A DNA stretch of 64,000 bases from a virus, in IMG/VR virus record IMGVR_UViG_3300024509_000014, positions 8,377 through 72,376 of that record; one strand, written 5' to 3'. Shown piece after piece: positions 7,682 to 40,084 of the stretch. The notes under the pieces are model-generated. The model did not search any database and was not told the DNA's origin. It saw nothing but the letters and a program-made list of their open reading frames with translations. Made by a program: the position numbers and the translations under genes. The number at the start of each line of letters is the position of its first letter. Positions within the stretch are counted from its first letter, which is position 1.

Positions 7682-7702
7682 TCTTTTCAAAAAACAGTTA
7701 GA

Positions 7703-22440: not shown

Positions 22441-22482
22441 GGGTAGGGGTTGGTCTTTGTCTTTCAGGGGTGGGGGTTGTCA

Positions 22483-24691: not shown

Positions 24692-25344
24692 CCACCAACA
24701 TCATCATTTGTTTTGACTTTGAGACGGGCGGTTTGGACATCAGAACCACCGAGCCAATCGAAATCGCTGCGGTCGCCATCAACCCCAGGACTCTGTCGGT
24801 AGTGCCGGATGGCACATTCTACAGCCTGTGCAAGCCGACCGATTTCTCCCTCCTGCAAGACCAGGCTCTGGCCGTCAACGGCAAGACGCGTGACCAGCTG
24901 AGGGCTGCGCCTGAGCAGGAAGCGGTCTGGCGTTCTTTCTGTTCTTTCATCAAGCGGTTCAATCCCAAGGGGAACAGCTTCACGACGGCGCCCATTGCCG
25001 CCGGGAAAAACATCCGCGCTTTTGACCTGCCGATTTTCAATCGTCTTTGCGCCAAGTACGGCTTTGCCGACAAGAACGGGGATCAAAACCTGTTCCATCG
25101 CCGGAAGGTCTATGACTTGGAGGATCTGCTGGAGTTCTGGTTTCATGACTCCGAAGAGCTTCCCGATCGCAAGATGGACACCTTGCGCGGATATTTTGGG
25201 ATGAGCCGGGACGGGGCGCATTCGGCCATGGTGGACACGAAACAGACGGCAGAATTGATCGTCCGCTTTTTGAAAGTGCATCGGTATTATGCCGCCAAAA
25301 TCCCGTTCCGTGGAGCTTGCGCCAAGAACCCGGTGATCATCTGA
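24688..25344 (+). CDS. DEDDh 3'-5' exonuclease (DnaQ/epsilon-like)
   Basis: FDFETGG, NIRAFD, HSAMVD. Confidence 0.88.
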   Translation: MTTNIIICFDFETGGLDIRTTEPIEIAAVAINPRTLSVVPDGTFYSLCKPTDFSLLQDQALAVNGKTRDQLRAAPEQEAVWRSFCSFIKRFNPKGNSFTTAPIAAGKNIRAFDLPIFNRLCAKYGFADKNGDQNLFHRRKVYDLEDLLEFWFHDSEELPDRKMDTLRGYFGMSRDGAHSAMVDTKQTAELIVRFLKVHRYYAAKIPFRGACAKNPVII

Positions 25345-26975
25345 TGGCCGAGTATCACATGTCCTGTGGTTGTTCCTGGCCGATAGTCGGGGATTCGCCA
25401 CGCCAAGGCGCTCTTCCCCTGCTTGATGTCGATGTGTCCAAGCTGCCGGATTGTCATCTGGCCTGGGACATCATGTCGATTGGCAATACCAAGGGTGTCT
25501 TCCAGCTGGAAAGCCGGCTGGGGGCAACCTGGGCCAAAAAGCTCAGGCCCAGGAATGACGAGCACCTTTCGGCTTTGGGCGCTTTGTTGCGCCCGGGCTG
25601 TTTGGCCGCCAAAGACGAGAACGGCATCAGCCTGACCGAACACTACTGCCGTCGCGTCAACAAAGAAGAGCCTGCTGACTCGTTCGACCCCGCCCTAGAC
25701 GAAATACTCGGGCCGACTGAGCAGATTTTGGTTTATCAAGAACAAGCCATGCAGATTGGAGCAAAGTTTGCTGGCTTCGATCTTAAAAATGTCGACAGGC
25801 TACGCAAGGCCATCGGCAAGAAGGATCAGAAGGAAATGGCCGAGGTCAAGCGGCTTTTCCTTGAGGGGGCAGAAAAGGTCAAGGTCGTTTCCATGGATGT
25901 GGCCGAGACCGTTTGGGGCTGGATCGAGAAGGCTGGACGGTACTCTTTCAACAAGTCCCACAGCATGAGCTACGGGCTGACTGGGTACGACACCGCCTAT
26001 CTCAAGTCCCACTTCCCGGTGCAGTTCTATACCTCGTGGCTGGCCTACGCCGAAGACAAGGTTGATCCGGATCAGGAAGTCATGGAGTTGGTCGAGGATG
26101 CCCGCAGGGCCGGGATCACCGTGTTTCCGCCCGATGTCCGCCACAAACAGATGATTTTCTGGACAGATGGCGTCGATATCTTTTTCGGGCTGTCAAACAT
26201 CAAGGGGTTGGGACAGTCCAATCTACACAAGCTGTTTGAGATTATGGAAAAAGCCGAGAAGGATTTGGGCAAGAAATCCACCGAATTCACTTGGGTCGAA
26301 TGGCTTGTGCATGTTGCCGCAGAAACACCTTCGGTGAATCACAAGCTGATCATGGCGGGCGCCCTGGATTGGGCGGGACGCAAGCGGCAACGAATGCTGG
26401 CCGAGATCGATGTTGTCGCCTCGCTCACCAAGAAGGAGCAGGCCTGGATTCTGAAGAACTGCAATGGAGACGAGCCGTTTGTCGATGTGCTTCGACGGTT
26501 GGCCAAACCGAAGAAGGAAGGCGGTGGTGTGGCCAATGTGAAACGCGGGTCTCTGGTGAATGGCCAGGCGACCCTTCTGGAGAATCCACCCACCCCGTTG
26601 AGCGACCATCCGGCTTGGATGGCTTGGGCAGAAGAGCAGGTCTTTGGGTTCGCCCTGACCTGTTCTCGCGTTGACGGTTGCGATCTGGGTGACGCAAACA
26701 CGACCTGCGGCGAATTCTTGGCTGGAAAGACTGGATTTCTTCTCCTTGGCGTTGAGGTGAGAGGGGTCAGGTCGTTTAAGACAAAGAAAGGGACCATGAT
26801 GGCTTTCCTTTCTCTATCGGATTCGTCCGGGATGCTGGACGATGTGGTGTGTTTCTCTGAGCCTTGGGAGGAGTACAAGCATCTCCTGTCTGAGGGGAAC
26901 ACGGTTTTGGTGCAGGGCGAACGAGACCCCAAGAAAGGTTCGTTGGTCGTGCGCAAGGTTTTTCAGATGTCATGA
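25344..26975 (+). CDS. dnaE: DNA polymerase III alpha, C-terminal half (fingers, HhH, OB)
   Basis: GVFQLES, LRPG, VYQEQAM, LRKAIGKK, YSFNKSHS, GLSNIKGLG, TKKGTMMAF. Confidence 0.93.
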   Translation: MAEYHMSCGCSWPIVGDSPRQGALPLLDVDVSKLPDCHLAWDIMSIGNTKGVFQLESRLGATWAKKLRPRNDEHLSALGALLRPGCLAAKDENGISLTEHYCRRVNKEEPADSFDPALDEILGPTEQILVYQEQAMQIGAKFAGFDLKNVDRLRKAIGKKDQKEMAEVKRLFLEGAEKVKVVSMDVAETVWGWIEKAGRYSFNKSHSMSYGLTGYDTAYLKSHFPVQFYTSWLAYAEDKVDPDQEVMELVEDARRAGITVFPPDVRHKQMIFWTDGVDIFFGLSNIKGLGQSNLHKLFEIMEKAEKDLGKKSTEFTWVEWLVHVAAETPSVNHKLIMAGALDWAGRKRQRMLAEIDVVASLTKKEQAWILKNCNGDEPFVDVLRRLAKPKKEGGGVANVKRGSLVNGQATLLENPPTPLSDHPAWMAWAEEQVFGFALTCSRVDGCDLGDANTTCGEFLAGKTGFLLLGVEVRGVRSFKTKKGTMMAFLSLSDSSGMLDDVVCFSEPWEEYKHLLSEGNTVLVQGERDPKKGSLVVRKVFQMS

Positions 26976-26984: not shown

Positions 26985-27407
26985 GTGAACAATTGCATTT
27001 TCATTGGGAACTTCGTGCGTGACCCCGAGCTTCAGAGCGTGGGGGCTGAACACCGCGTGGCAAAATTTGCCATCGCTGTCAACGGTGGCCGCAAGAACCG
27101 CAACGGAGAGGAGGAGGTCGCATTCATTGAGTGCGAAGCCTGGGACAAATCCGCTGACACCATCAGCAAGTACATGAAGAAGGGGTCGAAGATCGCCATC
27201 CAGGCGACCGCACGCACCGACACCTGGACTGACAAGTCGAGTGGCACCAAGCGTTCGACCTTGCGTTTTCGGGTGAACAACTTCACCTTCCTGGGAGCCA
27301 AGAACACCGAAGCCAGATCGGATAAGGCCGTAGCAGCCGGGGTGGGTGCCGAGGACGAGGGTGTCGGTTTTGCCAGTGGTGCTGACGGCGAAGAAATCCC
27401 CTTCTGA
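26985..27407 (+). CDS. ssb: Single-stranded DNA-binding protein
   Basis: IGNFVRDPEL, F.IAVN, KKGS, C-terminal EEIPF. Confidence 0.93.
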   Translation: MNNCIFIGNFVRDPELQSVGAEHRVAKFAIAVNGGRKNRNGEEEVAFIECEAWDKSADTISKYMKKGSKIAIQATARTDTWTDKSSGTKRSTLRFRVNNFTFLGAKNTEARSDKAVAAGVGAEDEGVGFASGADGEEIPF

Positions 27408-27415: not shown

Positions 27416-29017
27416 ATGGCACGCATCCTTCTGGTTGGTGAGGCGACTTGGTTGCAGACTGGCTATGCCACATACGCAAGCCAGATTGCCCACAAGCTTA
27501 AAGCAGCCGGTCATGAGATCGGGGAGTTGGCTTGTTACGGTGTTCCAAGTGATCCGAGGCGGGCGTCAAGCCCGTGGCCGGCTTTCTTCGTGACCACGAA
27601 CACGGACAACTATCCGCCTCTGGCCATCAACCAGTCCAATCCCGCGCTGGGGGCCACGATCTTTGAGGAAACCGTCCTGCGTTTCAAGCCGGATGTTGTT
27701 ATCTCATTGCGTGACCCCTGGCAGGATGCGTTCATTGCTTATTCGCCGCTGCGTTCTTACTATCGCTGGGTGTTCATGCACCCCGTCGACGGCGAACCTC
27801 AGGATGACGAATGGATTTCGGTATTGAATCAGGCCGATGCCGTACTGTGTTATTCGGAATACGGCCTGAATGTCCTGAAGCAGTATCCCGGCCTAAACCT
27901 GGCCGGGGTCGCTTCCCCCGGAGCTGAGCCGGATGTATTCTTCCCGCACTCTCAGCACGAATCCCGCGAGGCTCTGAACATCCCGCAGGATGCCCTGGTC
28001 GTGGGCACGGTGATGCGCAACCAGGGGCGCAAGCTGTACCCCGATCTTTTTGAAAGTTTCAAGAAGTTGCTGGACACGGCACCATCCCACATAGCCGACC
28101 GACTTTACCTGTACTGCCACACGGCTTGGCCCGATGTTGGCTGGGACATGCCCAAGTACCTGCTGCGACACGGTGTTGCCCACAGAACCCTGTTCACATT
28201 CGCCTGCAAGAAGTGCGATCGGGCCTCTGCCCTGCTCTGGCAGATGCCAGCCGGGTACTGTCCGTACTGCGCAAGTGGCGAATTAACCACCCCCGGCGTG
28301 GCTTCCGGCCTTCCTAGGTCGTTCATGCGGCCGGTGTATTCATCCATGGACGTATTCGTGCAATACTCGGTGTGCGAGGGCTTCGGAATGCCGCAGGTTG
28401 AAGCAGCCTGTTGTGGTGTCCCGGTGGTCTCGGTTGACTTCACCGCCATGTCTTCTGTGGCCTCGGCTATCGGGGCCGAAACCATCCCAGTCCAACGCGC
28501 TTTCCCCGAATTGGAAACCGGACGGATGATGGCTTTGCCGGACAACAATGCCTTGGTGTCCGCCCTGACCAACCTCTTCTCGTCGCCGCCCGCATTGCGT
28601 CGAGCGATTGGTCAAAAACATAGAGATATGGCTAGTGCTACATTCAGCTATGAAAAAGCAGCTAATGTGTGGCTAAATACAATATCAAGCTTGCAAAAAC
28701 CAACAAAAAGCTATCAAGATAATAAAAGAATATTGCCTAATTTATCTAAACCAGAAGAATATCTATCAAATAAAGAATGGGTTGACAAGGCTTTTGTTTC
28801 AGCCCTGGGAATCTCTTCTGCTCAGGCCGGATACCTAGCCCAAAGGATGCTGCGGGATCTTTCTCGTGGTTATTGTGATACCACTTTTGTCCCCTCTCAA
28901 TACACAAGTTTTGGCCCGGGTGGCAAGCTGGGAGCTTTCAACCGGGAACATGCTTGGGAACAACTGTGTGCCGAACGTCACAGGATTGAGTTTTGGGAGG
29001 AAATGCGGGCATCATGA
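27416..29017 (+). CDS. GT4-like (GT-B) glycosyltransferase with zinc-ribbon insertion
   Basis: TGYA, VMRNQGRK, EGFGMPQVEAACCGVPVV. Confidence 0.85.
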   Translation: MARILLVGEATWLQTGYATYASQIAHKLKAAGHEIGELACYGVPSDPRRASSPWPAFFVTTNTDNYPPLAINQSNPALGATIFEETVLRFKPDVVISLRDPWQDAFIAYSPLRSYYRWVFMHPVDGEPQDDEWISVLNQADAVLCYSEYGLNVLKQYPGLNLAGVASPGAEPDVFFPHSQHESREALNIPQDALVVGTVMRNQGRKLYPDLFESFKKLLDTAPSHIADRLYLYCHTAWPDVGWDMPKYLLRHGVAHRTLFTFACKKCDRASALLWQMPAGYCPYCASGELTTPGVASGLPRSFMRPVYSSMDVFVQYSVCEGFGMPQVEAACCGVPVVSVDFTAMSSVASAIGAETIPVQRAFPELETGRMMALPDNNALVSALTNLFSSPPALRRAIGQKHRDMASATFSYEKAANVWLNTISSLQKPTKSYQDNKRILPNLSKPEEYLSNKEWVDKAFVSALGISSAQAGYLAQRMLRDLSRGYCDTTFVPSQYTSFGPGGKLGAFNREHAWEQLCAERHRIEFWEEMRAS

Positions 29018-30144
29018 ACGACATCCTCTACATTGGCAATTTTCATGACGGAACGGGTTATGCCAGGGCCTGTTGCGAGACAGCCATTGCGTTAGAGGAG
29101 GCTGGAGCCAGAGTTATTTGTCGGCCAATCACCTTCAACGGTGCCTCCCACCCCTGCCATGAGAAAATCTACGGGCTGGAAGAACGCGCTATGCCCGCCA
29201 GGTTTGATGCGGTCATTCAGCACACCCTGCCGCCCATCATGAAGTTTGACCGCAGGCTCGGTCTGAATGTGGCCAATTTTTACTACGAGGCTAGCAGGTT
29301 CACCAGCGCAGGGTGGGATTTGCACCTGAACATGATGGATGTGGTTGTCACGACACCAGGAATCTCAACGAAAGCTTGCTCCAACAGTCGGGTGAACAAG
29401 CCGACCATCAGCCTGCCCCTACCCAGCGATGTCCATCGCTATCTGAAAAAGTATCCGGTTCCGGATTTCATTCGACAGTACGTCAACGAGAAGAAGTTTG
29501 TCTTCTACACGATCGGCGAGAATGTCCGACGCAAAAATTTGGGTGGGTTGATCAAGGCCTATTACAGCGAGTTTCTGCCGACCGAAAATGTCGTGCTCGT
29601 CATCAAGACAAACGGCGATCCGCGCCATGTCCAATCGATGATGCGCGAGATCGGACAGGGCATGAAACTGCCTTATCTTCCAGAAATAGTCGTGATCACG
29701 GAACGGTTGACAGAAGATCAGCTGATGGGTCTTCATGCTCACGGATCATGTTTTGTCCAGGCCTCTTGTGGTGAAGCCTGGTCTTATCCGGCCTTTGACG
29801 CAATGGCGATGGGCAGGACTCCGGTTGTGCCAGACACCGGAACCTATCGCTCCTATATCTCGGATGAGACCGGCTATCTCGTTCCCGTCTACGACGAGCC
29901 ATGCTCGGGCGGTCAGGACGAGTCAGCCGAGCTTTACCGTGGCGACGAACAATGGGAGGTTCCTTTTACCAAGGATCTGTCCCATGCGATGCGAAGGGCT
30001 TACAGGGAGGATGACCAGCGTCAAGCGAAAGCTTCGCTCGGTCTGGAAGTGGCGTACCAATTCATCCCCCTGAAGGTCGGCAAGACCTTCCTGGAGGCTC
30101 TTGACCATGCGACGCAAAAACAAGCTGTGGACCGATTTTCTTGA
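29014..30144 (+). CDS. GT4-like glycosyltransferase
   Basis: GTGYARA, RRKNLGGLIKAY, GEAWSYPAFDAMAMG. Confidence 0.85.
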   Translation: MNDILYIGNFHDGTGYARACCETAIALEEAGARVICRPITFNGASHPCHEKIYGLEERAMPARFDAVIQHTLPPIMKFDRRLGLNVANFYYEASRFTSAGWDLHLNMMDVVVTTPGISTKACSNSRVNKPTISLPLPSDVHRYLKKYPVPDFIRQYVNEKKFVFYTIGENVRRKNLGGLIKAYYSEFLPTENVVLVIKTNGDPRHVQSMMREIGQGMKLPYLPEIVVITERLTEDQLMGLHAHGSCFVQASCGEAWSYPAFDAMAMGRTPVVPDTGTYRSYISDETGYLVPVYDEPCSGGQDESAELYRGDEQWEVPFTKDLSHAMRRAYREDDQRQAKASLGLEVAYQFIPLKVGKTFLEALDHATQKQAVDRFS

Positions 30145-30850
30145 AGATGATAATGACCCAGAACTGATTCCGTGGCAACAAGTTAGGGACGCCGATGTTG
30201 AAAAACGGTTTGATGCTAAGAAGCCTGTTAAGAAGATCAAGGCCAGGACGCCCAACCAACAGAACTACATCAACAATATTGAGGCCTGCACTCTGACTAT
30301 CTGCACTGGCCCGGCTGGTTGCGGTAAAACCTACATCCCCTGCGGTCTCGCCGCCAACTGGCTCCACGAGAACAAGATCGAAAAGGTCATTCTGACCCGA
30401 CCCATCGTTGAGTGCGGTCAAAGGCTGGGCGCCCTGCCTGGCACTTTGGGTGAAAAGACCGACCCTTTCATGGCCCCCATGTTTGATGCCTTCGGGGATT
30501 TTCTCGACCCGGGATTCCTCAAGCACTGCCGGAACAAGGAGACCATTGAGGTGGTCCCCCTGGAAACGATGCGCGGTCGAACATTCCACAACTCGGTGAT
30601 CATTCTGGACGAGGCCCAGAATGTGACCCGTCGCCAGATGAAAATGTTTCTCACCCGTTTTGGTGAGAATTCCAAGGTCATCGTTTGCGGAGACGTTACC
30701 CAGACAGACTTGCCCCACTCTGAAGGCAATCCGCTCATCTGGGTGTGGGAAAAGTTAGGTCATCCTGACATCGCCAAGGTCACTCTGGGGCCAGAAGATG
30801 TTCAGCGCCATGGCTTAATTCGCCATATCCTTGAGCGTTTGGGAGACTGA
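30107..30850 (+). CDS. phoH: PhoH-family ATPase
   Basis: GPAGCGKT, LGALPG, MRGRTF, ILDEAQN, GDVTQTD, VQRH. Confidence 0.93.
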   Translation: MRRKNKLWTDFLEDDNDPELIPWQQVRDADVEKRFDAKKPVKKIKARTPNQQNYINNIEACTLTICTGPAGCGKTYIPCGLAANWLHENKIEKVILTRPIVECGQRLGALPGTLGEKTDPFMAPMFDAFGDFLDPGFLKHCRNKETIEVVPLETMRGRTFHNSVIILDEAQNVTRRQMKMFLTRFGENSKVIVCGDVTQTDLPHSEGNPLIWVWEKLGHPDIAKVTLGPEDVQRHGLIRHILERLGD

Positions 30851-30859
30851 CCCCTGTGC

Positions 30860-30920
30860 GGCATGGGTAAGATCGTTAGCGACGGCCATCCGGGCCGTTT
30901 CAACGGGTCTTATCCATGCC
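30860..30920 (+). promoter_or_regulatory. Long hairpin burying the start codon of gene 30916
   Basis: GGCATGGGTAAGATC pairs with GGTCTTATCCATGCC (two G-U pairs); inner GACGGCC/GGCCGTT stem. Confidence 0.65.
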
Positions 30921-31938
30921 AGACATTGCCAGCATCCTAAAATCTGCCGTCCGCAAGACTGACAGGATCAATGTCCTCACTTTTGTTACCCACGAGCGGT
31001 ACCAAAGTGCTTGGGGCGGGGTGGACGCCAATTTTTTCCTGTGGAATGATGAAAACGCCAAGCCGTGGATGCGCCAATATGCGCCCATGCCAGCCAACCA
31101 CATCCTGCTGCCCTTCCATCCGTCGACGCCAAATGTTCCTGTCGGCATAGACATAGACCTCGTGATCACGCACCATCTCAGCCAGTACGACCGGGCTTTG
31201 CAGGCTGCGACGCATTTGGGTGTCCCGTTGCTGCGCCTGGAACATTGTCTGCCCGACGAGACTTGGTCTCCTGAGCAAGTTCGCTTCGCCAAGGCCAAAT
31301 CGGGCGATGTGAATGTCTTCATCACCCAACACCAGCTGAAAGCCTGGGGTGGGTGCGAGGACGATTTCGTGATCTACAACGCCATCGACACGGATTTGTT
31401 CCGGCCGCGGGATGGTGGCAGCCGAGATCCGGTTTGCCTGAGCGTGGTCAACGACTGGATCAAGCGTGATTATGTCTGCGGCTTCAGTTTCTGGAAACTG
31501 GCCACGAAAGACCTTCCCGTCCGTGTGCTGGGCGACACGCCAGGCCTGTCCAAAGCAGCCGCCAACGTCGAAGAGTTGGCTGATGCCTACCGCAGTTCGT
31601 TGTTGTTTCTCTGTACTGCCACCAACAGTTCCCTGCCCACGACCGTCCTTGAGGCCATGGCCTCCGGTTGTTGTGTGGTGGCCTACCGTGCGACCGCTAT
31701 CGAGGAAGCCATTGAGCATGGCGTGAATGGTTTTCTCGTCGACAGTCCAGAGGAGATGAACGCCACCGTCAAAAGACTGCTGGCGAATCCGTCCTATTGC
31801 GAGATGATCGGCGCAGCAGCCAGGGAAAGGGCTGTTGGCCGTCACAACCTGGATGTTTTTGTGGAGAAGTGGAGCCAGGCCCTGCGTCTGGCCGTAGACG
31901 CCCCGTGGTGGAGGAAACAATGGTCAAGTTGCGCTTGA
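30916..31938 (+). CDS. GT4-like glycosyltransferase
   Basis: IYNAIDTDLF, PTTVLEAMASGCCVV, IEHGVNGFLV. Confidence 0.85.
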   Translation: MPDIASILKSAVRKTDRINVLTFVTHERYQSAWGGVDANFFLWNDENAKPWMRQYAPMPANHILLPFHPSTPNVPVGIDIDLVITHHLSQYDRALQAATHLGVPLLRLEHCLPDETWSPEQVRFAKAKSGDVNVFITQHQLKAWGGCEDDFVIYNAIDTDLFRPRDGGSRDPVCLSVVNDWIKRDYVCGFSFWKLATKDLPVRVLGDTPGLSKAAANVEELADAYRSSLLFLCTATNSSLPTTVLEAMASGCCVVAYRATAIEEAIEHGVNGFLVDSPEEMNATVKRLLANPSYCEMIGAAARERAVGRHNLDVFVEKWSQALRLAVDAPWWRKQWSSCA

Positions 31939-32369
31939 GTGTGGGCGACTCAAAGATGAGCCTGCCTGGATTTGTCCATATCGACCCGTTTAGCCAAGAG
32001 AATCCAGGCAATCCAGCCGATCTGTCCAGGCATGCCGAGGAAGGCGAGGCCCTTGAGATCGTCGCCGCTGATGTCTTGGATTTCTATCCCGGTGAATTCC
32101 GGCATCGCTTGCTGGGCCATTGGGTTTCCAGGCTCAGTCGTGGCGGCGTGATCCTTGTCGGCACCCGAGAAATCGTCGAGGTTTGTCGCCATGTCATGTT
32201 GGGCGAAACCGACAGCTTCAGCCAGCTGGTCTTTGGGAGCAGCGGTCAGCGTCGCCAGAGTGCTGGCACACTGCCCGAGTTGAAGTCGATGCTCTCGCTG
32301 ATGGGCACGACCCTTGTGCGTTCGTATGTAAAAGACTTCATGAGCTATGTGGAGGCAGTCCGTGATTAG
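31920..32369 (+). CDS. Class I SAM methyltransferase-like protein (degenerate)
   Basis: LRLSVGD...PGFVHID, DVLDF, W..RLSRGGV resemble small phage methyltransferases; GxG loop eroded. Confidence 0.55.
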   Translation: MVKLRLSVGDSKMSLPGFVHIDPFSQENPGNPADLSRHAEEGEALEIVAADVLDFYPGEFRHRLLGHWVSRLSRGGVILVGTREIVEVCRHVMLGETDSFSQLVFGSSGQRRQSAGTLPELKSMLSLMGTTLVRSYVKDFMSYVEAVRD

Positions 32370-33159
32370 TACATCGTGCCATAATTGCCGGTTCGCCATC
32401 AAGGATGTGGGTGGCAATCAGACCGGATGTTGGACCAGCATGCTCAAGCGTTTCCAGGAGCAGGGCAGGGTCGAACTGGAGAATGTTGCTGGCGCCGACT
32501 CGTACAGGACGATCGATTGCTTCTGCCCGATGTTCCGTCCGGCAGACTGGATGAGCGAACTGAATCACGACCAGGCGATCGCCGAAGCCCGCAAGGAGCG
32601 AACGCTGGCTGTCGCCGCAATTGTCTCGTGCGAGAAGGGCGAACTGTCTGATGTCGCCCGAACCGCCGAGATGCTGGAACAGCAGACCCTCAAGCCCACC
32701 GAGGCCGTTTTCGTCATCACCCCGCGCTCCGTTGTCAAACCAAAGAATGTCTTGTCAACCCTGCGCGACCTTGACCTGTCCTACCAGTATTCGTTGCGTT
32801 TTGTCATGGACGCCTCGTACACCGAGACGGACGCCCTACAGGAAGGGGCCGGCAACAACCTGAAGTCCGTGTTCATCCTGTTCGCCGAAGCGGGACAACA
32901 TCTGGAAAACTGCTACCTAGCCGATCTGGATCATCTGATCAACGAACAGAACCAGCGGGTTGTGCTAGTCGATCCTGGCAAGATTCACGGCATGCTCGTC
33001 CAGACCATGGCCTTCAACATGGTCGGAGGCTTCCACGAGGTGGTCTGGGAAGGAACCGAGGAAAAGATCGCCAGCGTTGCCGAGAAGCTCAAGCGCATCG
33101 CCAAAAGCCAGAACTCGCAGTATCTGATCCTTGACGGGGAGGTTCCCCATGTCGCTTGA
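32362..33159 (+). CDS. Hypothetical protein with Cys-rich N-terminus and possible degenerate GT-A domain
   Basis: CHNC...C...CFC; AFNMVGGF resembles a GT2 C-terminal motif. Confidence 0.55.
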   Translation: MISTSCHNCRFAIKDVGGNQTGCWTSMLKRFQEQGRVELENVAGADSYRTIDCFCPMFRPADWMSELNHDQAIAEARKERTLAVAAIVSCEKGELSDVARTAEMLEQQTLKPTEAVFVITPRSVVKPKNVLSTLRDLDLSYQYSLRFVMDASYTETDALQEGAGNNLKSVFILFAEAGQHLENCYLADLDHLINEQNQRVVLVDPGKIHGMLVQTMAFNMVGGFHEVVWEGTEEKIASVAEKLKRIAKSQNSQYLILDGEVPHVA

Positions 33160-33898
33160 CCGGGTGTCGGTTGTCATCGCCAACCACAACTACGGTCATT
33201 TTTTGGCAGAAGCACTTGACTCTGCCGCTTCCGAGAAGCCTGGCCGCATCATCGTTGTCGACGACGGGTCAACCGATGACTCCGTGAGCGTTGTCTTTCG
33301 CAAATTGTCCGATGCGACCGAGCAGGATCATGCTGGGGTGCCATCTCTGGTCGGCCATATTGATGGCGTGCAGGTTCGTTTGTTCTCGGCCCACGAATCC
33401 CGCGGCCCTGCCGCAGCCCGCAACTGGGCCATGCGCGTAGCCTGGGATCAGACGGACTACTTTGCCGTCCTAGACGCCGACGACAGATTCCTGAGCGGAA
33501 GACTCGGTGCCTGCGTGCAACTACTGGAAAAATACGGAGAATCAGCCGGTGCGATTTATACGGACTATTACCATGTGCGCAATGGTGTTCATTTTCGTCA
33601 CTGCAAAAAATCTTTCGTAAAACGCGAACTGGCTTTTGACAACATGGTGCATTCAGCCTGCGTGATAAGGAAGTCTGCTTTGAACGAAACCGGACTGTAT
33701 GACGAATCGATGCCTCCAGCGGAAGATTATGAATTGTGGATGAGGATAGCAAGGAACCGAGTCATCCTTCATTTGCCGGAGGCGATGATGGATGTGAACG
33801 AGGGCGATTACCAGCTTTCGCGCCGAACCAAGCCTGACTTCTACGCCCAACAACTCCGAACCATCAGGGAGCGACATTGTCAGAGCTTGTTGTCGTAA
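33149..33898 (+). CDS. GT2 glycosyltransferase
   Basis: VSVVIANHN, IIVVDDGSTD, GPAAARN, LDADD, EDYELW. Confidence 0.92.
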   Translation: MSLDRVSVVIANHNYGHFLAEALDSAASEKPGRIIVVDDGSTDDSVSVVFRKLSDATEQDHAGVPSLVGHIDGVQVRLFSAHESRGPAAARNWAMRVAWDQTDYFAVLDADDRFLSGRLGACVQLLEKYGESAGAIYTDYYHVRNGVHFRHCKKSFVKRELAFDNMVHSACVIRKSALNETGLYDESMPPAEDYELWMRIARNRVILHLPEAMMDVNEGDYQLSRRTKPDFYAQQLRTIRERHCQSLLS

Positions 33899-34581
33899 TA
33901 TCGGCCGCTGGAGCCGGTCGTCGCATGAAAGCCAGGGGGCCTAAGGCTCTCATCGATATTGGCGGTGGCGAGACCGTTCTCAGCAGACAGCTTGCGCTGG
34001 CGAGAAGAGCCATGCCGAATGCCGAATTGATCGTGGTGGTCGGCTACCAAAAGGAAAGGGTGATCAAGACCCTGCCCAAAGATGTTCGCTGGGTAGAAAA
34101 TGCGGATCACGAGCAGACCAATGTAGCCCGCTCATTGTTGATGGGAATTGCTGAGTGTCCGACGCGCAGAGCCGTGCTCATGTGCGGCGACCTCGTTTTT
34201 GGCCCTGAGTTTTTATCCAGCGTACCCAACGAGGGTTCTGTCGCCGTCATCGACGAAAACCACAATCACCGTTCCTCCGAAGTCGGCTGCAATATCGACC
34301 AGGGACGAATCTGTCATTTTAGTTACGGCGTCTGGCCCAAGTGGGGCCAGGCTGTGGCGCTTGGGGACAAAGAACTTGATCTTTACCGCAGGATAGCGTC
34401 GAGGGATCAATGCGCACGATGGTTTGCTTACGAAGTGTTGAACGGCGTCATCGACGCTGGTGGCGTGATTTCGCCAGCCTATCCCAAAAAATCCTATCTC
34501 GTTGAGATCGACAGCACCCAGGACATCGACAGGGCCAAAAGTATGGTCAGCAAACTGCGTCGGAAAGGAGTGGTCGCATGA
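33877..34581 (+). CDS. Sugar-phosphate/phosphocholine nucleotidyltransferase (LicC-like)
   Basis: AAGAGRRM...PKAL, VVGY, GDL, EIDSTQD. Confidence 0.82.
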   Translation: MSELVVVISAAGAGRRMKARGPKALIDIGGGETVLSRQLALARRAMPNAELIVVVGYQKERVIKTLPKDVRWVENADHEQTNVARSLLMGIAECPTRRAVLMCGDLVFGPEFLSSVPNEGSVAVIDENHNHRSSEVGCNIDQGRICHFSYGVWPKWGQAVALGDKELDLYRRIASRDQCARWFAYEVLNGVIDAGGVISPAYPKKSYLVEIDSTQDIDRAKSMVSKLRRKGVVA

Positions 34582-35372
34582 ATGTCTTGATAGTCAACGA
34601 CGACAACGGTGTTGGCAGCGGTGCTTTGGCCCACGGTTTTGCCATGCTGAAACATGATGTGGCGATGTGGTCTCCGGAAAAGATGCCAGCCTATCAGGCG
34701 TTCGGAAGACAAAAGCCAGACTTGTTCATCGGCCCGACATCCTCTTACACACCAGCTGTTCAGCGTTCAGCAGGCAATGCACAAATGGCCCTGTGGCAGG
34801 ATGACACCACTTTTTTCGACAAGGTTCCGCCGAATGTCTTTCTGTTCGCCGCCGACGAGGGGAAGGGCGACCTGCCCCACATCCCCTGGCCGTATCTGCC
34901 ACTCGCCGAAACTCCTTACCGGGATGAGATGGCGACCGACATTCTGTTCCTGGACGAGTACAGGCCCGGGTTCGACGCTTTCTTCATGCCGCTTTTTGAA
35001 AAACAGGGTGTCGTTGCCAGAATCCACAGCGACAAACCCTGGCCGGTGCCCTATTACGCTGGCAGCCTCAACCAGCAGGAGAGGATTGCCGCCATCGCAT
35101 CGACCGTGATTTGTCCGATGTATGCCGACGAGGCGGCCGACATCCGCAAGATGTACGAGATCGTGCGGGCCGGGGCGGTGCCGATGGTTGTCGGGGACGA
35201 GAAGCTATTGCCCTACGGCGGTAAGCCGGACGGCTACATCGAGCTAATGCTTGAGATCATCCACGAAAGTGGCTCCAAGGAGAGAATCAACGGCTATCTT
35301 GCCGATCTGTTCTCGGCCAACAATCCAGTTGATGCAGCGCAAACCCTCCTGAGGACCATGATCACATGCTGA
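34578..35372 (+). CDS. Hypothetical protein, possible divergent GT-B/CgeB-like fold
   Basis: MNVLIV...GFA...HDV, KPDLFI; cluster context. Confidence 0.55.
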   Translation: MNVLIVNDDNGVGSGALAHGFAMLKHDVAMWSPEKMPAYQAFGRQKPDLFIGPTSSYTPAVQRSAGNAQMALWQDDTTFFDKVPPNVFLFAADEGKGDLPHIPWPYLPLAETPYRDEMATDILFLDEYRPGFDAFFMPLFEKQGVVARIHSDKPWPVPYYAGSLNQQERIAAIASTVICPMYADEAADIRKMYEIVRAGAVPMVVGDEKLLPYGGKPDGYIELMLEIIHESGSKERINGYLADLFSANNPVDAAQTLLRTMITC

Positions 35373-35992
35373 GTCTCATCCTTGACAAGCCACACAATCT
35401 GGATGTGTTGTGCCGATGCCTGTCCATGGTTGCGGCCTATCGACCCTCGCCTGACACGGAAGTCATCGTGCCGTGGGACGGCAAACCCAGAGAGGTGCTG
35501 CCAATACTCAAGGCGTTCAGCTCGCGTTTCTTCTGGAAAATCGGATTGTGTCCGGAAGGGACAGCCGGCTATTTGGCCGTTGCCCACCTCGCCAAGTCCG
35601 AACATCCTGTCTTCATGAGTCATCGCCTGCTGATGACCGGCGAGGCTTTTTCAGCCCTTGAGTCGGCCACATCCGGCAGGGCGTGCGTCTACAAGACAGA
35701 TGGCATGCTGCTGGAATATGACCCGTACAGCTACTGGTTCCCGGAAGGTTACCGCCAAAACTGCCTGAAGATGCCGCATCAGATCCAGGAGGTTCAGGTT
35801 GACCAGCTTCCTTACTGCGTGGTCGGTAAGGCAGAATCGCTGGGTGGCGTGGCTGACCTTCCTTTTGTCGACGCTCAGGTTTTTCTGATGGACGGACCAC
35901 CTGTGTCGCTTGGCCAGGCTCTTCCTGAAGACATCCCCATCCTGTCCAGCACCGACACCCCTTGTTTTCCTCCCGATGAAGATCGAGTTTGA
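35366..35992 (+). CDS. Hypothetical protein, possible degenerate GT-A fold
   Basis: RCL.....EVIV N-terminal pattern; overlaps both neighbours. Confidence 0.5.
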   Translation: MLSLILDKPHNLDVLCRCLSMVAAYRPSPDTEVIVPWDGKPREVLPILKAFSSRFFWKIGLCPEGTAGYLAVAHLAKSEHPVFMSHRLLMTGEAFSALESATSGRACVYKTDGMLLEYDPYSYWFPEGYRQNCLKMPHQIQEVQVDQLPYCVVGKAESLGGVADLPFVDAQVFLMDGPPVSLGQALPEDIPILSSTDTPCFPPDEDRV

Positions 35993-36665
35993 CCATGTCG
36001 AGGGCTGGGGCAAGATCACCCAGCACGATCTCATTCACGCCCCCTGCTGGGTTGTCCGGGAGTGGGAATCTCACGACCAGATGCTGGAGGCGGGATTCCT
36101 GCCGTGGGCTGGCAAGTGGTTCCCGGCCCGCTCCGTCCGTTACGATCTGGAGCGCATGACCTTCGGGCGCACGGTCGAGAAAAGCTTTCGCAAGGCCATC
36201 AAGACCGTCAGCTGGCACGAGGAAAAGCCCAACGAGGATGACTACGGGCGTATCGTGTCTGGCTATCTGGCCCACCACCAGTTTGACAGCGGGCATGTGT
36301 TCGCCGAATTGGCAGAAAACCGGGAGTTTTCCTGGCTGACTTACAAGGCAGACGGCAGGGCGGTCGCCTTCCTGGCCTATCTGAGTTATCCCCGCTCCTT
36401 TGTCGGTCTCCAGTTCGCCTGGGACTACGCCGACCCCAAGCTCTCCCTTGGCTCGGTTAGTACATATGTCGAAGCCACGCTTGCCCGGTCAAACGGCTGC
36501 CGCTGGTATTACGTCATGGGAGGTTACGAGAATGCCAGTCTCTACAAGTCAAACCACGAAGGCTTTCAGTTTTGGACCGGCAAAGAATGGTCGGAAGACA
36601 AAGAACTCTATATCCAACTCTGTCAGCGAGACTCGAGGATCACATACGAAAATGTTTATTCTTGA
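35976..36665 (+). CDS. Ate1/Bpt-like aminoacyl-tRNA-dependent transferase
   Basis: MLEAGF...RSVR; WDYADPKLSLGSVSTYVE..LA...GCRWYY.GGY....YK matches the ATE_C pattern. Confidence 0.72.
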   Translation: MKIEFDHVEGWGKITQHDLIHAPCWVVREWESHDQMLEAGFLPWAGKWFPARSVRYDLERMTFGRTVEKSFRKAIKTVSWHEEKPNEDDYGRIVSGYLAHHQFDSGHVFAELAENREFSWLTYKADGRAVAFLAYLSYPRSFVGLQFAWDYADPKLSLGSVSTYVEATLARSNGCRWYYVMGGYENASLYKSNHEGFQFWTGKEWSEDKELYIQLCQRDSRITYENVYS

Positions 36666-36858
36666 GCCAAAACAGTCTCTGGAAGTGGAAACCCCAAAGG
36701 GTAAAGGGCGCGTCTGGCTTGTCACAGACTACGGGCCGGAGACAGAAAAGTTGTTTGCGGTCATCCTTTACGAGTCCGGAGAAATCTGGGAATTCACCAA
36801 CAAGGATGTGAAGGCCACAAAAAACCTAACCATGGGGCGCGGGAGCTGGTCAAAATGA
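36652..36858 (+). CDS. Small hypothetical protein
   Basis: VETPKGKG..W...DYG.E phage-type motif; overlaps both neighbours. Confidence 0.65.
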   Translation: MFILEPKQSLEVETPKGKGRVWLVTDYGPETEKLFAVILYESGEIWEFTNKDVKATKNLTMGRGSWSK

Positions 36859-37589
36859 GAATCGCATTTTCGCCCTATGTGTTGACCTTGGTGGGCACCG
36901 ATCAATGCGGTGTCGTCAACGGTGAGATTCACACCATCAAGGTGGCTCTCCGATCCGGCGTCTGGGCGGTTCGACACAAGGAACGGGTTCAATGTTTCCA
37001 GGACTTCCCGGACGCGCATCTCAGCCAGGATTTGTCCTGCAACCTCTCGACAAAAATCTTGCAGGATGACGGGTGGTATCCCGGCAAGGTGGACATATCC
37101 GAAAGCATCGATGAAATCTGTGCGCGGGCTGGCGGGTTGGTTTCTCTGGCCAAGGACAGCATCGGTGTGAACGGCCCGTTTGTCTTGCCCTTTGGCGAAG
37201 GGCTGGAGAAAAACGGCATTCTGCTGCGCGTGGACGGCAACGCAAACGAGTGGCAAAGACCATATGATCCCAGACACGCCACCAGCCTGACGATCATGGC
37301 AGGCATGCTGGTCAAGAACATGGCTGCGGGCGACTGGGAAAAGGCCGGGGATGTGCTGGAGCAATCCTGGAAACTCATCCGCGAGGAGGCTCCGGCAGAG
37401 ATCATCCGCGCTTACGCCGACGCCAGAATGCATGGTGCCTGGGGTTGCGTCTGGTGTGGCGACAATACGCTGTTTTGTCTTGCCTCCCCAGAATGGCACG
37501 CGTCGATTTCAAGCATGGTCGGCGTGGAGAAGCTGCCTTTCCAGATCAGCTATCAAGGGGCAGGCCTGAGGGCTGCGCTGAAGCCATGA
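36855..37589 (+). CDS. GHMP kinase-like (HddA heptose-7-phosphate kinase-like) protein, degenerate
   Basis: N-terminal P..LTLVGTD; C-terminal GDWEKAGDVLEQSW...AY..AR.HGAWG...PFQISYQG; GSGLGSS and GAGGGG loops missing. Confidence 0.6.
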   Translation: MRIAFSPYVLTLVGTDQCGVVNGEIHTIKVALRSGVWAVRHKERVQCFQDFPDAHLSQDLSCNLSTKILQDDGWYPGKVDISESIDEICARAGGLVSLAKDSIGVNGPFVLPFGEGLEKNGILLRVDGNANEWQRPYDPRHATSLTIMAGMLVKNMAAGDWEKAGDVLEQSWKLIREEAPAEIIRAYADARMHGAWGCVWCGDNTLFCLASPEWHASISSMVGVEKLPFQISYQGAGLRAALKP

Positions 37590-38038
37590 AAGTCCAATTC
37601 CTTGTCCCGACATTGGCTTCGTCCCACCAAGCCCTGGCTCTCGTCCATTGTGGCAACGAACTCGTGCGCAAGGGCCATGAAGTCCATGTCTTTGTGGAAG
37701 ACAAGGGGTCGCCGCCTTCCAGACCCCATTTTCCAGTCTTTGACGCCGCCTACGCCTACACACAACCGGGACCACTCATTGTCACGACACTTTCAAGCTT
37801 GGCTTTGGCCGTGAGTTCGCCAATCAAGCGGGAACTCTGGTTTTATGCCTGGGACATGGAATGGCTCAATGGCGAGTCGTTTGCCTGGCGAGACTTGCAT
37901 CCCATGTACACAGCAACCCCCCTAGTCGCAAGATCAAGCCACCACAGGCGCATTCTTGAAAACACCTGGGGAAAAACCGTGAACCATATCGTCGAAGATT
38001 TCAGCGCAGATCAGATTGAGAGGCTGCTATGTCCATGA
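37586..38038 (+). CDS. Hypothetical protein resembling a GT-B N-terminal domain
   Basis: MKVQFLV...NELVRKGHEVHVF. Confidence 0.55.
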   Translation: MKVQFLVPTLASSHQALALVHCGNELVRKGHEVHVFVEDKGSPPSRPHFPVFDAAYAYTQPGPLIVTTLSSLALAVSSPIKRELWFYAWDMEWLNGESFAWRDLHPMYTATPLVARSSHHRRILENTWGKTVNHIVEDFSADQIERLLCP

Positions 38039-38811
38039 CCTACGAGTATCTCGTGGAAGAATACGTCAACAAGCAACGGTCAACCCACGAGATTGCCGAG
38101 GAGCTTGGGACTTACCCCAACCGGGTTCGTCGGGCACTGAACAAGTTCGGCATCCCCGTCCGCAGCCGCTCGGAAGCCCAGTTGGTCGCCCTGGAGCAGG
38201 GTCGCCAGGAACACCCGACCAAGGGCAAGAAACTGTCTCCTGAGCGCAAGGCCCAGATTGGCGAGAGGATGGCCGAGCAGTGGGGGTCGATGTCGGAGGA
38301 GGAACGGAAGCGCCGCTCGGAAATCTCCAAAAAGCAATGGGAGACCATGGACGAAGGGCGTCGGGAATCCTTGCAGAAAAAAGCCCTGGACGCTGTGCGT
38401 GTCGCCGCTGACACCGGTAGCCGTTTGGAAAAGTACCTGATCCGCGGTCTGACCCAGGCCAGGTATCCGGTGGATTTTCATGTCCAGCTGGATCGCCAGC
38501 ATATCGACATGGTTGTTAGCCGTAAAGTGGGTTCCTTCAAGGGGATAGCGATCGAAGTCAACGGTCCTTCCCACTACAAACCGATCTGGGGGGATGATTA
38601 TTATGAAAAAAGAGCAGCCTCTGATGCGAAGAAGGTAGGGATGCTCGTCGGAAGTAATTTCCTAGTGATCATTATCAAAGACACTAAGGGAAGTCCTTCT
38701 GAAATTCGTATGAAGCACACTTTACAAAAGTTGTTGAGCATCATAGAATTGGCGAAGACCGACCCCGGGGTGGGGTCATATCATGAGATTGAGGTGGCGG
38801 TCGATGGCTAA
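38029..38811 (+). CDS. Putative homing endonuclease (HTH, NUMOD3-like and Vsr/DUF559-like nuclease domains)
   Basis: STHEIAEELG, HPTKGKKLSPERKAQI, SRLE, ID...IAIEVNGPSHY. Confidence 0.7.
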   Translation: MSMTYEYLVEEYVNKQRSTHEIAEELGTYPNRVRRALNKFGIPVRSRSEAQLVALEQGRQEHPTKGKKLSPERKAQIGERMAEQWGSMSEEERKRRSEISKKQWETMDEGRRESLQKKALDAVRVAADTGSRLEKYLIRGLTQARYPVDFHVQLDRQHIDMVVSRKVGSFKGIAIEVNGPSHYKPIWGDDYYEKRAASDAKKVGMLVGSNFLVIIIKDTKGSPSEIRMKHTLQKLLSIIELAKTDPGVGSYHEIEVAVDG

Positions 38812-39655
38812 GAAGAAACCCGTTTCCGTTGCGGATTTGGACGGCGAAAGCGTTCTGGACACGGTCTCTCTGGACACCCCTGTGGTGGTCGAGGACGGCA
38901 TCCAGTTCAACAGCGATGTTCTGGTAACCCAGGTTGGCCAGGAAGTGGTGGACAAGCCCAACTTCGATGCTGATCTGTACAAGGAACACTGTCCGACCGA
39001 CCCGGACTGGACCGAGTATGTGTTGTCCAAACTGTCCCCAGACGAACTGTCCCCTGAAGGCCGTCCGACCTGCGATGGCCTGCGCCGGGTAGCAGAGTTG
39101 GTTTTGGGGCCGACCCTGAAATCGACTGTGCGGATCGTCCAGTCCCCCGCTCCCGACAACGGCATGACGGCTGTGGCTGAATTCAGCTACACCTACCATT
39201 CCATCCACACCGACCGGGAGGTGACTTTCACCGCTGCGGCCGATGTCAACTCGGGCAACACCGACGGGATGTTCTCCAAGTTCGCCACGGCGATGGCTGA
39301 AACACGCGCCGAGGGGCGGGCCTTGCGCAAGGCTTTGCGTCTGCGTCGGGTGCTGACCGCCGAGGAGCCTTCGGCCCTGTTCCACGATGTGGATTTGAGC
39401 AACGGCGGCAAGTCCACCGAGATGCAGCATTCCTTCATCAAGACCCTGTGTGAACGCAACGATATCAACATCGACGCCTACCTGGGATCATCCAAATCAT
39501 TCAAGTGGAACGGCAAGCTGGAGGATATCCCCCACAAGTCTGCCGTACTCATCATTGCGCATCTGAACGAGCTTCAGAGGGACAGAGCTAAAATCGACCC
39601 CAAATTCAAGGGGTACGATGCTAGCTGGAAAAACAGCAACAAGACCACGGAGTAA
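38804..39655 (+). CDS. Putative single-strand annealing protein (Rad52/Sak-like)
   Basis: GLRRVAE...AMAETRAEGRALRKAL motif. Confidence 0.5.
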   Translation: MAKKKPVSVADLDGESVLDTVSLDTPVVVEDGIQFNSDVLVTQVGQEVVDKPNFDADLYKEHCPTDPDWTEYVLSKLSPDELSPEGRPTCDGLRRVAELVLGPTLKSTVRIVQSPAPDNGMTAVAEFSYTYHSIHTDREVTFTAAADVNSGNTDGMFSKFATAMAETRAEGRALRKALRLRRVLTAEEPSALFHDVDLSNGGKSTEMQHSFIKTLCERNDINIDAYLGSSKSFKWNGKLEDIPHKSAVLIIAHLNELQRDRAKIDPKFKGYDASWKNSNKTTE

Positions 39656-39657
39656 CC

Positions 39658-40023
39658 ATGAAAGCCCACATCCCGACAGCGCACGGCACGATTGAAATTG
39701 ATGCCACCGATGTCAAAGAACTGTTCCGTCAAATTGCCGCCACCCACGAGGTTTTCGGGGATCATCGTTGCGGTGCCTGCGGTGAGGATCGCATCGCCCC
39801 CCGTGTTCGCCGGGTGACCAAGGGCAAGGTTGAGTACGAGTATTTTGAAATCTGCTGCAACAATCCGAAATGCCGGGCGAAGCTGGCTTTCGGGCAATAC
39901 CAGGATGGTAGCGGCCTGTTCCCGGTGCGGAAGCTGGACAAAGACGGCCAGCCAGACCGGGAAAACGGCACCTACGGCCCACACAACGGGTGGAGTAGGT
40001 ACCGAGGCGAACAGAAGGACTAG
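39658..40023 (+). CDS. Hypothetical zinc-ribbon protein
   Basis: CGAC...CCNNPKC; GGAG RBS. Confidence 0.7.
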   Translation: MKAHIPTAHGTIEIDATDVKELFRQIAATHEVFGDHRCGACGEDRIAPRVRRVTKGKVEYEYFEICCNNPKCRAKLAFGQYQDGSGLFPVRKLDKDGQPDRENGTYGPHNGWSRYRGEQKD

Positions 40024-40046
40024 GGAACCTTGGCGGGATTCCCTTG

Positions 40047-40084
40047 AAGGGGGCGGGGGGTGTGTTGCCCCCCGCTCTTTTTTT
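40047..40084 (+). terminator. Intrinsic terminator at the convergence of the two transcription blocks
   Basis: GGGCGGGGGG-TGTGTTG-CCCCCCGCTC followed by T7. Confidence 0.8.

Follow-up and report, generated by a model that had tools for sequence, protein, structure and literature searches.

A glycosyltransferase-rich gene island with an embedded ATE/Bpt-like gene pair in an uncultured siphovirus-like phage

Layout and conservation of the island

The stretch of DNA analyzed here (64,000 nucleotides, referred to as the window) covers bases 8377–72376 of the 72,376-bp viral contig IMGVR_UViG_3300024509_000014 from IMG/VR, which has an estimated completeness of ~49%. Immediately 3' of the ssb gene, 14 genes on the plus strand (g1–g14) occupy positions 27416–38038 (table 1). 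An earlier note, made from the sequence alone, had described about 14 tightly coupled genes at this position, and indeed adjacent genes overlap by 4–38 nt and the sole gap measures 65 nt (30851–30915). Start sites were chosen by eye and are backed by full-length tblastn matches in orthologues; g12 was absent from the gene list of the earlier note. Glycosyltransferase (GT) folds are supported for seven of the encoded proteins, GT-B for g1, g2, g4, and g9 and GT-A for g6, g7, and g10, with g14 as a weak eighth. So many GT-fold proteins within 14 genes are clearly not due to chance, and the evidence supports a dense, conserved glycan-building island with a putative sugar-activation pair (g8 and g13). 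Embedded within the island is a gene pair, g11-g12, that forms a two-gene module of its own, almost restricted to viruses and independent of GTs.

Table 1. Coordinates of the island genes and of further features in the window
Feature	Position	Strand	Length (aa)	Description
1213-aa protein	4040–7681	+	1213	Three long poly-Thr/Ser tracts; candidate O-glycosylation acceptor
GT7-like gene	10100–10849	+		GT-A; near ribonucleotide reductase; Glyco_transf_7N E 1.3e-4, Glyco_transf_7C E 5e-4, both below cut-off
ssb	26985–27407			Pfam SSB, 83 bits
g1	27416–29017	+	533	GT4/GT-B glycosyltransferase; Pfam Glycos_transf_1, 35.7 bits (cut-off 26.4)
g2	29014–30144	+	376	GT4/GT-B; Glyco_trans_1_4, 31.2 bits; Glycos_transf_1, 27.6 bits
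g3	30107–30850	+	247	PhoH-like ATPase; PhoH (PF02562), 234.6 bits, above cut-off
g4	30916–31938	+	340	GT4/GT-B; Glycos_transf_1, 60.2 bits
g5	31920–32369	+	149	Weakly methyltransferase-like; dN/dS 0.044
g6	32347–33159	+	270	N-terminal 4-Cys domain, then GT-A fold glycosyltransferase; family outside Pfam
g7	33149–33898	+	249	GT2 glycosyltransferase; Glycos_transf_2 (PF00535), 68.2 bits
g8	33877–34581	+	234	MobA/GlmU-N/IspD-type nucleotidyltransferase; NTP_transf_3, 56.1 bits
g9	34578–35372	+	264	GT-B fold, CgeB/Glyco_trans_1_2-like; Atlas feature score 0.96
g10	35366–35992	+	208	GT-A-like; clade-only
g11	35976–36665	+	229	Divergent ATE/Bpt-superfamily (aminoacyl-tRNA transferase-like GNAT) protein without ATE_N
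g12	36652–36858	+	68	Constant partner of g11; no known family; dN/dS 0.007
g13	36855–37589	+	244	GHMP-kinase-fold protein with atypical phosphate-loop motif; putative sugar kinase
g14	37586–38038	+	150	Possibly GT-B N-domain-like; dN/dS 0.032
Terminator-like hairpin	40046–40082	+		Intrinsic-terminator-like; 17-bp stem, 9 GC pairs, T run; closes the unit of replication genes and island
Extra GT2-like gene	40501–41538	−		Glycos_transf_2 (PF00535) E 1.3e-7; distal end of tail module

Related contigs were collected from IMG/VR in separate scans with the ATE-like gene, an alignment of the g11 family and an alignment of g1. The synteny search that the earlier note had proposed found 10 distinct related contigs with an unchanged gene order; each carries every island gene within its reach, and the encoded proteins are between 100% and about 35% identical to those of the window. 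The island gene set is confined to one clade according to these scans; the g1 alignment gave 44 pattern matches, of which 10 were confirmed, representing nine loci that all lie inside the clade. Because all relatives share ancestry, the co-occurrence is not independent evidence. Relative to the orthologues in L002, dN/dS is 0.007–0.15 for each of the 14 open reading frames (ORFs), which are therefore real genes under purifying selection. The fastest-diverging genes are g6, g9, and g13, with 34–39% protein identity to the window in a deeper branch of the clade (L107) where PhoH retains 77% and g12 74%, a pattern that fits a glycan structure or specificity that changes between relatives.

Megablast with the island as query found no match among 50,697 deposited phage records, PHROGs provided no family for eight island ORFs, and NCBIfam gave only sub-threshold, generic matches to the island proteins. 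Searches of the PDB using phmmer with g6, g9, g10, and g13 found nothing significant. A recent amplification of the GTs was considered and rejected, as blastp among the island proteins shows no recent paralogy. Three further plus-strand genes (g15–g17, 38029–40023) follow the island, are kept with it across the clade and are succeeded by the strong terminator: g15 is HNH/restriction endonuclease-like (weak PHROG matches), g16 (290 aa) had no function assigned, and g17 encodes a 121-aa Cys-rich protein.

The relatives include a near-complete close relative (G001, 145,196 bp, 97% complete) and a 149,106-bp record with direct terminal repeats (G002, 100% complete). The phage is siphovirus-like, judging by its tape-measure protein and its structural and replication genes, with terminase, portal, and head-decoration-like genes present in G002. 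The tape-measure protein (48832–61533, minus strand) is 4233 aa long with a PhageMin_Tail domain near the N-terminus, and its G002 orthologue has 3868 aa; by the usual tape-measure length rule, an exceptionally long tail is implied for a protein of 4233 aa. The replication arm encodes ribonucleotide reductase, RecA with an insert, DnaB, primase, a PD-(D/E)XK nuclease, DnaE as two ORFs, an RNase_T exonuclease, and SSB. The RecA-like protein (700 aa, 13530–15632, plus strand) carries inserted LAGLIDADG/Hom_end homing-endonuclease domains that look like an intein. DNA polymerase III alpha is split into 22450–24408 (PHP and NTPase core) and 25317–26975 (finger, HHH, and OB), both on the plus strand, with a 96-aa ORF and the RNase_T/DnaQ-like exonuclease gene (24655–25344) between the two parts. 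The best relative of the N-terminal DnaE part among the 50,697 deposited phage records shows at most 34% identity.

Glycosyltransferases and sugar activation

Assignment to GT4/GT-B was based on PF00534 (cut-off 26.4) or PF13692 (cut-off 27) and applies to g1, g2, and g4. These three, the GT2 protein g7, and the PhoH protein g3 all score above the Pfam cut-offs, which bears out the three GT4s, the GT2, and the PhoH named in the earlier note. The g1 protein has an internal 4-Cys insert (C264, C267, C282, and C285 are invariant in six orthologues) and a C-terminal extension of ~100 aa; its distant homologues are glycosyltransferases of the cyanophages S-CBS4, S-EIVl, and Mae-JY09 and of Tetrasphaera phage TJE1. 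Among the weak NCBIfam matches of g4 are SdgA and SdgB, enzymes that O-glycosylate Ser-Asp-repeat adhesins (E ~2.5e-5, far below cut-off).

Several further genes had been labeled GT-like unknowns, a label that holds by fold for g6, g9, and g10. A total of 417 representative homologues of g6 were found at E ≤ 1e-3, and 61 sequences all keep residues C11, C14, C28, and C60; four of the 61 match the Pfam GT2 family (PF00535). The AlphaFold2 model of g6 (pLDDT 95.3) gave 156 Foldseek matches in the PDB at E ≤ 1e-3; among the matches listed, nearly all are GT-A glycosyltransferases and a few are nucleotidyltransferases (e.g., IspD), with WrtF, TarP, and PcManGT at the top and viral GT2 proteins also present. 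The modeled fold alone thus identifies g6 as a GT-A protein. An Atlas structure search aligned g9 with Glyco_trans_1_2 clusters (TM 0.71–0.77), and the protein is 35–55% identical across the clade. The g10 model has a pLDDT of 68, with values >80 for approximately the first 100 residues, and gave 15 Foldseek matches at E ≤ 1e-3, including K4CP, TarP, EXTL2, and SpsA at E 1.6e-5 to ~1e-3. Only eight homologues each of g10 and g13 were found among 5.8 billion clustered proteins, all within the clade. For g14 the label is weak: three of the four orthologues scanned match Glyco_transf_4 at E 0.014–0.084, below the cut-off, and a profile of its orthologues found nothing significant in the PDB.

Two GT genes had also been placed outside the island. 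The one assigned to GT2 beside the tail module was recovered with a clear Pfam match, and the GT7-like gene near nrdJ has sub-threshold matches only, albeit to both halves of the GT7 family. A small Zn_ribbon_8 protein (11066–11440, plus strand, 62.8 bits) is encoded near the latter gene.

Two proteins may provide activated precursors. The nucleotidyltransferase recognized in the earlier note is g8, for which NCBIfam gives its best partial matches with the GlmU N-terminal domain, none of which reaches the cut-off; g8 is a putative maker of a nucleoside diphosphate sugar or a cytidine diphosphate alcohol. The protein previously described as an HddA-like kinase is g13, and here the GHMP fold stands (TM 0.82–0.87 to Atlas clusters of which 95–100% are GHMP_kinases_N/C), while the kinase motif is atypical and no Pfam family matches at E ≤ 0.01. 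The alignment of g13 orthologues retains a Pro-x3-Gly-x-Glu remnant at the expected place and a Gly-rich C-terminal motif.

Two other island genes are less readily connected to glycan synthesis. The most conserved large gene is g3 (73–97% identity), and L031 and L076, two loci of another phage lineage, have PhoH immediately 5' of the ATE-like gene; g3 is probably a backbone gene rather than a glycan enzyme. The methyltransferase-like label that the earlier note gave to g5 is a soft one: the CheR S-adenosylmethionine-binding domain matches one of five orthologues (L018, E 1.1e-4, below cut-off) and does not match the window copy, and the orthologue profile found nothing significant in the PDB.

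The g11-g12 gene pair

The g11 protein matches Acetyltransf_6 (PF13480) with 27.7 bits (cut-off 22) and ATE_C, a family of the same clan, with 19.1–19.4 bits (below the cut-off of 25). A total of 27 homologues of ~225 aa were found, 21 of which carry a precomputed ATE_C annotation. Among 26 aligned family members, ATE_C matches all 26 at E ≤ 0.01 (best 1.4e-8) and Acetyltransf_6 matches eight, and neither these members nor the window g11 match ATE_N. Family members share a conserved N-terminal region of ~100 residues that matches no Pfam family. A profile of the family detected five ATE1 sequences in the PDB (E 5.6e-6 to 8.7e-6); positions 117–189 of the profile, within the shared GNAT core, align to residues 233–307 of ATE1 at E 5.6e-6, and the yeast ATE1 structures matched or compared were 8e3s, 7tif, and 7wg1. 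These profile matches place the g11 family in the ATE/Bpt superfamily, and the Ate1/Bpt-like designation of the earlier note was right at that level. In contrast to ATE1 and Bpt, the g11 proteins are only ~225 aa long and have neither an ATE_N domain nor an N-terminal zinc-finger, and the family is almost virus-restricted and always paired with g12. In yeast ATE1, the N-terminal zinc-finger contacts the tRNA 3' end.

The distribution of the family was determined by scanning IMG/VR with the g11 family alignment, which matched at least 598 viral stretches, of which at least 546 were confirmed and the best 80 loci kept. A tblastn search with g11 against the 50,697 deposited phage records found no match. 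Overall, 82 loci were examined: g11 is present in 81 of them, and g12 (63–68 aa) adjoins it in the same 81 out of 81. The remaining locus (L006) contains a 26%-identical g11 outlier, detected at a looser threshold only, and no g12. The examined loci contain 46 distinct g12 sequences, and outside the clade g12 is better conserved than its partner (44–71% identity vs. 35–46% for g11). No Pfam family matches g12, and its profile has no significant match in the PDB. A structure prediction for the g11 and g12 complex scored 0.01, which is no evidence on binding in either direction.

A scan of one genome per species from 185,579 prokaryote species identified a single g11 match. It lies on a 118-kb contig (L101) in a metagenome-assembled genome (MAG) labeled Chitinophagaceae, where g12 again adjoins it. 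Most probably this contig represents a phage or prophage that was binned with the MAG, and it may hint at a possible host for that lineage.

The earlier note had treated the ATE-like protein as part of a multi-step pathway that builds a possibly aminoacylated glycan, that is, all 14 genes would form one system in which the ATE/Bpt-like enzyme aminoacylates a glycan or a glycosylated acceptor. The arrangement in the window is consistent with such integration, as g11-g12 lies between GT genes with overlapping stop and start codons and its position is kept in every clade member that reaches it. Elsewhere the pair occurs in different company. Its neighbors there are a PD-(D/E)XK nuclease, an HU-like protein, a GNAT protein and, in some loci, PhoH directly upstream. 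Homologues of the island GTs occur within 10 kb of g11 in the window's clade only, with two exceptions: one lineage of 206–221 kb has a g2 homologue of 23% identity, and another single locus has a 22% match to g1. A search for Glycos_transf_1 and Glycos_transf_2 (GT1/GT2) in 15 whole records that carry the pair found matches in four, one of which is a 3.7-Mb MAG. Among the 14 other viral records with g11-g12, 11 are free of GT1/GT2, including three that are 100% complete (114, 124, and 130 kb); among the five pair-bearing viral records that are at least 90% complete, three are GT1/GT2-free. The two GT-rich phage records that would fit an integrated system (G011 and G012, 206–221 kb; loci L020, L024, and L029) form a second lineage with 6–8 GT1 and 6–7 GT2 matches that are scattered through the genomes. 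One record of that lineage contains two g11-g12 copies ~150 kb apart.

Because 11 of the 14 other viral records with the pair carry no GT1/GT2, g11-g12 represents a separate module, and its conserved partnership is between g11 and g12 and not with a GT. A single pathway that includes the ATE-like step is therefore very improbable: of the multi-step pathway proposed earlier, the dense and conserved glycan-building island stands, and the aminoacylation of the glycan falls away. As for the module itself, g11 is presumably aminoacyl-tRNA-dependent and probably transfers an amino acid onto a protein or a small acceptor, with g12 acting as its substrate or specificity partner. A literature search, in which subscription journals were thinly covered, found no description of a phage-encoded arginyltransferase-like enzyme.

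Possible targets and comparison with known systems

The earlier note had proposed three targets for the glycan: virion proteins, phage DNA, and the host envelope. Virion proteins are favored because the phage encodes Thr-rich, acceptor-like proteins. The 1213-aa protein contains tracts at residues 330–370, 1098–1134, and 1136–1156 (21–41 residues, 76–90% Ser/Thr) that separate folded, Cys-containing modules, and its G002 orthologue contains seven such tracts. In G002, large proteins with such tracts between small Cys-containing modules are encoded at 92973–97010 (minus strand) and 28536–29537 (plus strand); among the Thr-rich proteins of G002, one of 333 aa inside the structural module starts with a 47-residue Thr-rich tract. 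None of these large proteins gave a family match. Such tracts are rare: tracts of 11–47 residues with at least 70% Ser/Thr occur in one of the 73 ORFs of the window's contig and in three of the 201 ORFs of G002. A dip in GC content at positions 6001–8000 of the window coincides with the poly-Thr tracts. Collagen-like Gly-x-y repeats, considered as sites of hydroxylation or glycosylation, occur only in the tape-measure protein (10 repeats) and in one G002 ORF (five repeats). The literature search, with the same thin coverage of subscription journals, found no description of a phage poly-Thr virion protein that is glycosylated by phage GTs.

The clade-specific glycosylation island would consist of g1, g2, g4–g10, g13, and g14. 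For the order of steps, the sugar, and the acceptor we infer the following scheme: g13 would phosphorylate the sugar, g8 would activate it with a nucleotide, and several GTs would then extend an oligosaccharide stepwise, directly on a protein acceptor in the cytoplasm. The best acceptor candidates are the mucin-like poly-Thr tracts of the large, probably virion-associated proteins of the phage. A sequential cytoplasmic pathway is the most likely arrangement because the proteins are soluble and because no phage lipid-carrier, flippase, or polymerase and no base-hydroxylating enzyme was found. A crude Kyte–Doolittle hydropathy scan of G002 identified no ORF with two or more predicted membrane segments among 201 (12 have one). 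A precedent in gene layout is provided by S-CBS4, where distant g1 homologues are encoded next to another GT and a methyltransferase in the interval that separates the portal gene from the protease gene. The explanation favored here, at just short of an even chance, is therefore O-glycosylation, by a cytoplasmic pathway, of Thr-rich and probably virion-associated proteins that the phage itself encodes, with g11-g12 embedded as a separate module.

Several observations weigh against this explanation. The acceptors of the GTs are candidate proteins only. The 1213-aa protein has no Pfam family and no significant PDB match, which makes its virion role a candidate one; its sole tblastn match is a partial one in an unannotated phage record of 595 kb, and its gene is on the early/replication strand. 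In g13 the canonical GHMP phosphate-loop motif is not kept, so that its kinase activity is uncertain, and the g10 model is of moderate quality only. The evidence on the island comes from a single clade, and shared ancestry alone could account for the synteny. Soluble GTs such as TarP modify host lipid-linked polymers without any phage membrane protein. The island directly follows dnaE, the exonuclease gene, and ssb, is co-directional with them and is not preceded by a strong terminator, the first being the one at 40046–40082, so that it apparently shares a transcription unit with the replication genes. Finally, the Atlas cluster at rank 28 for g9 carries T4-Gluco-transf on 40% of its members. 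The last three points bear on the two remaining targets.

In remodeling of the host envelope, lipid-linked or nascent host polymers (lipopolysaccharide/O-antigen, capsule, teichoic acid, or exopolysaccharide) would be modified by the soluble GTs at the cytoplasmic face, and the altered cell surface would serve superinfection exclusion, progeny release, or the display of decoys. The structural neighbors of g6 and g10 fit this idea, as they include the wall-teichoic-acid GTs TarP and TarS, WrtF, K4CP, and heparosan polymerases, and TarP is prophage-encoded. The weak NCBIfam matches of g1, g4, and g7 likewise point to GTs of exopolysaccharide, lipopolysaccharide, and teichuronic acid synthesis, but the NCBIfam matches of the island GTs all lie far below the cut-offs. 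Furthermore, judging by the hydropathy scan of G002, in which polytopic components are absent, the phage brings neither Gtr-, Wzx-, or Wzy-like proteins nor an initiating phosphoglycosyltransferase of its own, so that an exported glycan or a modified host O-antigen finds no support in phage membrane components. No integrase or lysogeny module turned up among the scanned window genes, although no search was aimed at them. Seven to eight GT-fold proteins plus sugar activation would be a large outlay for a surface edit within a lytic cycle, and the Thr-rich proteins of the phage offer a simpler acceptor. An envelope target is accordingly considered unlikely.

Hypermodification of DNA, in which the GTs would attach sugars to a modified base of the phage DNA, as in T4, RB69, or the 5-hydroxymethylcytosine systems, and thereby evade restriction, would agree with the location of the island and with the g9 cluster mentioned above. 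The same applies to the Cys4 zinc-ribbon-like elements of g1 and g6 and to an NT5C-type 5' deoxynucleotidase in the replication module (21859–22440), and phage DNA-GT clusters that make up to trisaccharides are documented by Pyle et al. The published routes to DNA glycosylation require either a ThyA homologue or a methyltransferase together with 5mYOX. The relevant enzymes were searched for in three records (the window's contig, G000, and the relatives G001 and G002, the latter two 97–100% complete). ThyA-type PF00303 was found in none of the three, with the control matched in 10 of 14 genomes; TGT/DpdA was found in none, with the control matched in 14 of 14; and TET_JBP (PF12851) was found in none, with a weak control that matched in one of 14 genomes and below cut-off. 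An ordinary flavin-dependent thymidylate synthase, ThyX, is encoded in all three (in the window's contig at G000:C1:6008–6802, upstream of the window). A C5-methyltransferase (PF00145) and a 2-oxoglutarate (2OG) oxygenase (PF13640) were found in one of the three records, G002, and folds of an oxygenase or hydroxymethylase are absent from the island. A search for the T4-Gluco-transf family gave no match and is uninformative, as its control matched nowhere either; with this control silent and that of TET_JBP weak, both null searches are soft, which is a further point against O-glycosylation of proteins as the preferred reading. DNA is nonetheless disfavored as the target because no ThyA-type enzyme and no TET/JBP was found, and this route is rated as quite improbable.

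Two G002-specific genes deserve mention in their own right. The 2OG-Fe(II) oxygenase gene (P4H-like, G002:58304–58534, minus strand) adjoins the orthologue of the tail-module GT2 gene and is found in neither G000 nor G001; its product could pair protein hydroxylation with glycosylation. The C5 DNA methyltransferase domain is part of an ORF of ~815 aa (G002:119250–121697, minus strand).

Glycosylation of virion proteins by phage-encoded enzymes is of a known kind, reported for mycobacteriophages by Freeman et al. 2023 (as cited in PMC12619734). There, as proposed for the island, soluble phage GTs act without a lipid carrier or export machinery, and they place glycans on the structural proteins of the phage itself. 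The island differs by encoding seven to eight GT-fold proteins along with a putative kinase and nucleotidyltransferase and by its location in the replication/early arm. Its candidate acceptors, which are known from genes alone, are internal poly-Thr linkers, whereas the acceptors in mycobacteriophages are C-terminal tails of capsid and tail-tube proteins. The mycobacteriophage systems reportedly comprise two or three genes.

Giant viruses such as chloroviruses and mimiviruses glycosylate autonomously: they encode many GT-A and GT-B enzymes as well as nucleotide-sugar genes and use them in the cytoplasm to decorate virion proteins with complex glycans. The island resembles these viruses in combining many GT-A and GT-B proteins with activation genes, and the viral structural neighbors of g6 are mostly GT2 proteins of giant viruses and uncultured phages. 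Here, in contrast, the genes belong to a tailed phage of a prokaryote with a genome of ~145–149 kb, and there is no sequence-level kinship beyond the shared fold. Scale, a private activation pair, location, and the type of candidate acceptor set the island apart from known virion and giant-virus glycosylation.

Phage DNA glycosylation clusters likewise contain several GTs related to lipopolysaccharide and teichoic-acid enzymes, sometimes with sugar-nucleotide genes, near replication genes. Examples are the alpha- and beta-GT of T4, clusters of a methyltransferase, 5mYOX, and GTs (Pyle et al.), and 5-hydroxycytosine arabinosylation in RB69 and DLP3; the defining base-hydroxylating enzyme (a ThyA homologue or TET/5mYOX) was not found in the complete relatives of the window. 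A further comparison is with the small glycan cassettes of S-CBS4 (gp014–016) and TJE1 (orf9–14), which contain the sole g1 homologues in the 50,697 deposited phage records (22–25% identity). Alongside these homologues are genes for either a second GT plus a methyltransferase or a nucleotidyltransferase, epimerase, and methyltransferase. In contrast to the island, the cassettes comprise three to six genes, are situated within or close to the head-packaging module, and lack an ATE-like gene.

The boldest form of this interpretation combines both parts of the locus. A siphophage of ~149 kb would carry out mucin-type O-glycosylation of the poly-Thr linkers in its virion fibers with at least seven GTs and a private activation pair, and an embedded virus-only ATE-like transferase would, with its obligate 65-residue partner, use charged tRNA outside translation and outside the classical N-degron pathway in hundreds of phage lineages. 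This combination is put forward with considerable doubt. If the glycosylation pathway is real, it would to our knowledge be the largest self-contained protein-glycosylation pathway in a tailed phage, and virion glycosylation would extend beyond the actinophages to uncultured environmental phages, where it might shield the particle, change adsorption, or increase particle stability. Set apart from the island, g11-g12 is a compact, near virus-only module of two genes, built on an aminoacyl-tRNA-transferase fold and present in the confirmed viral stretches counted above.

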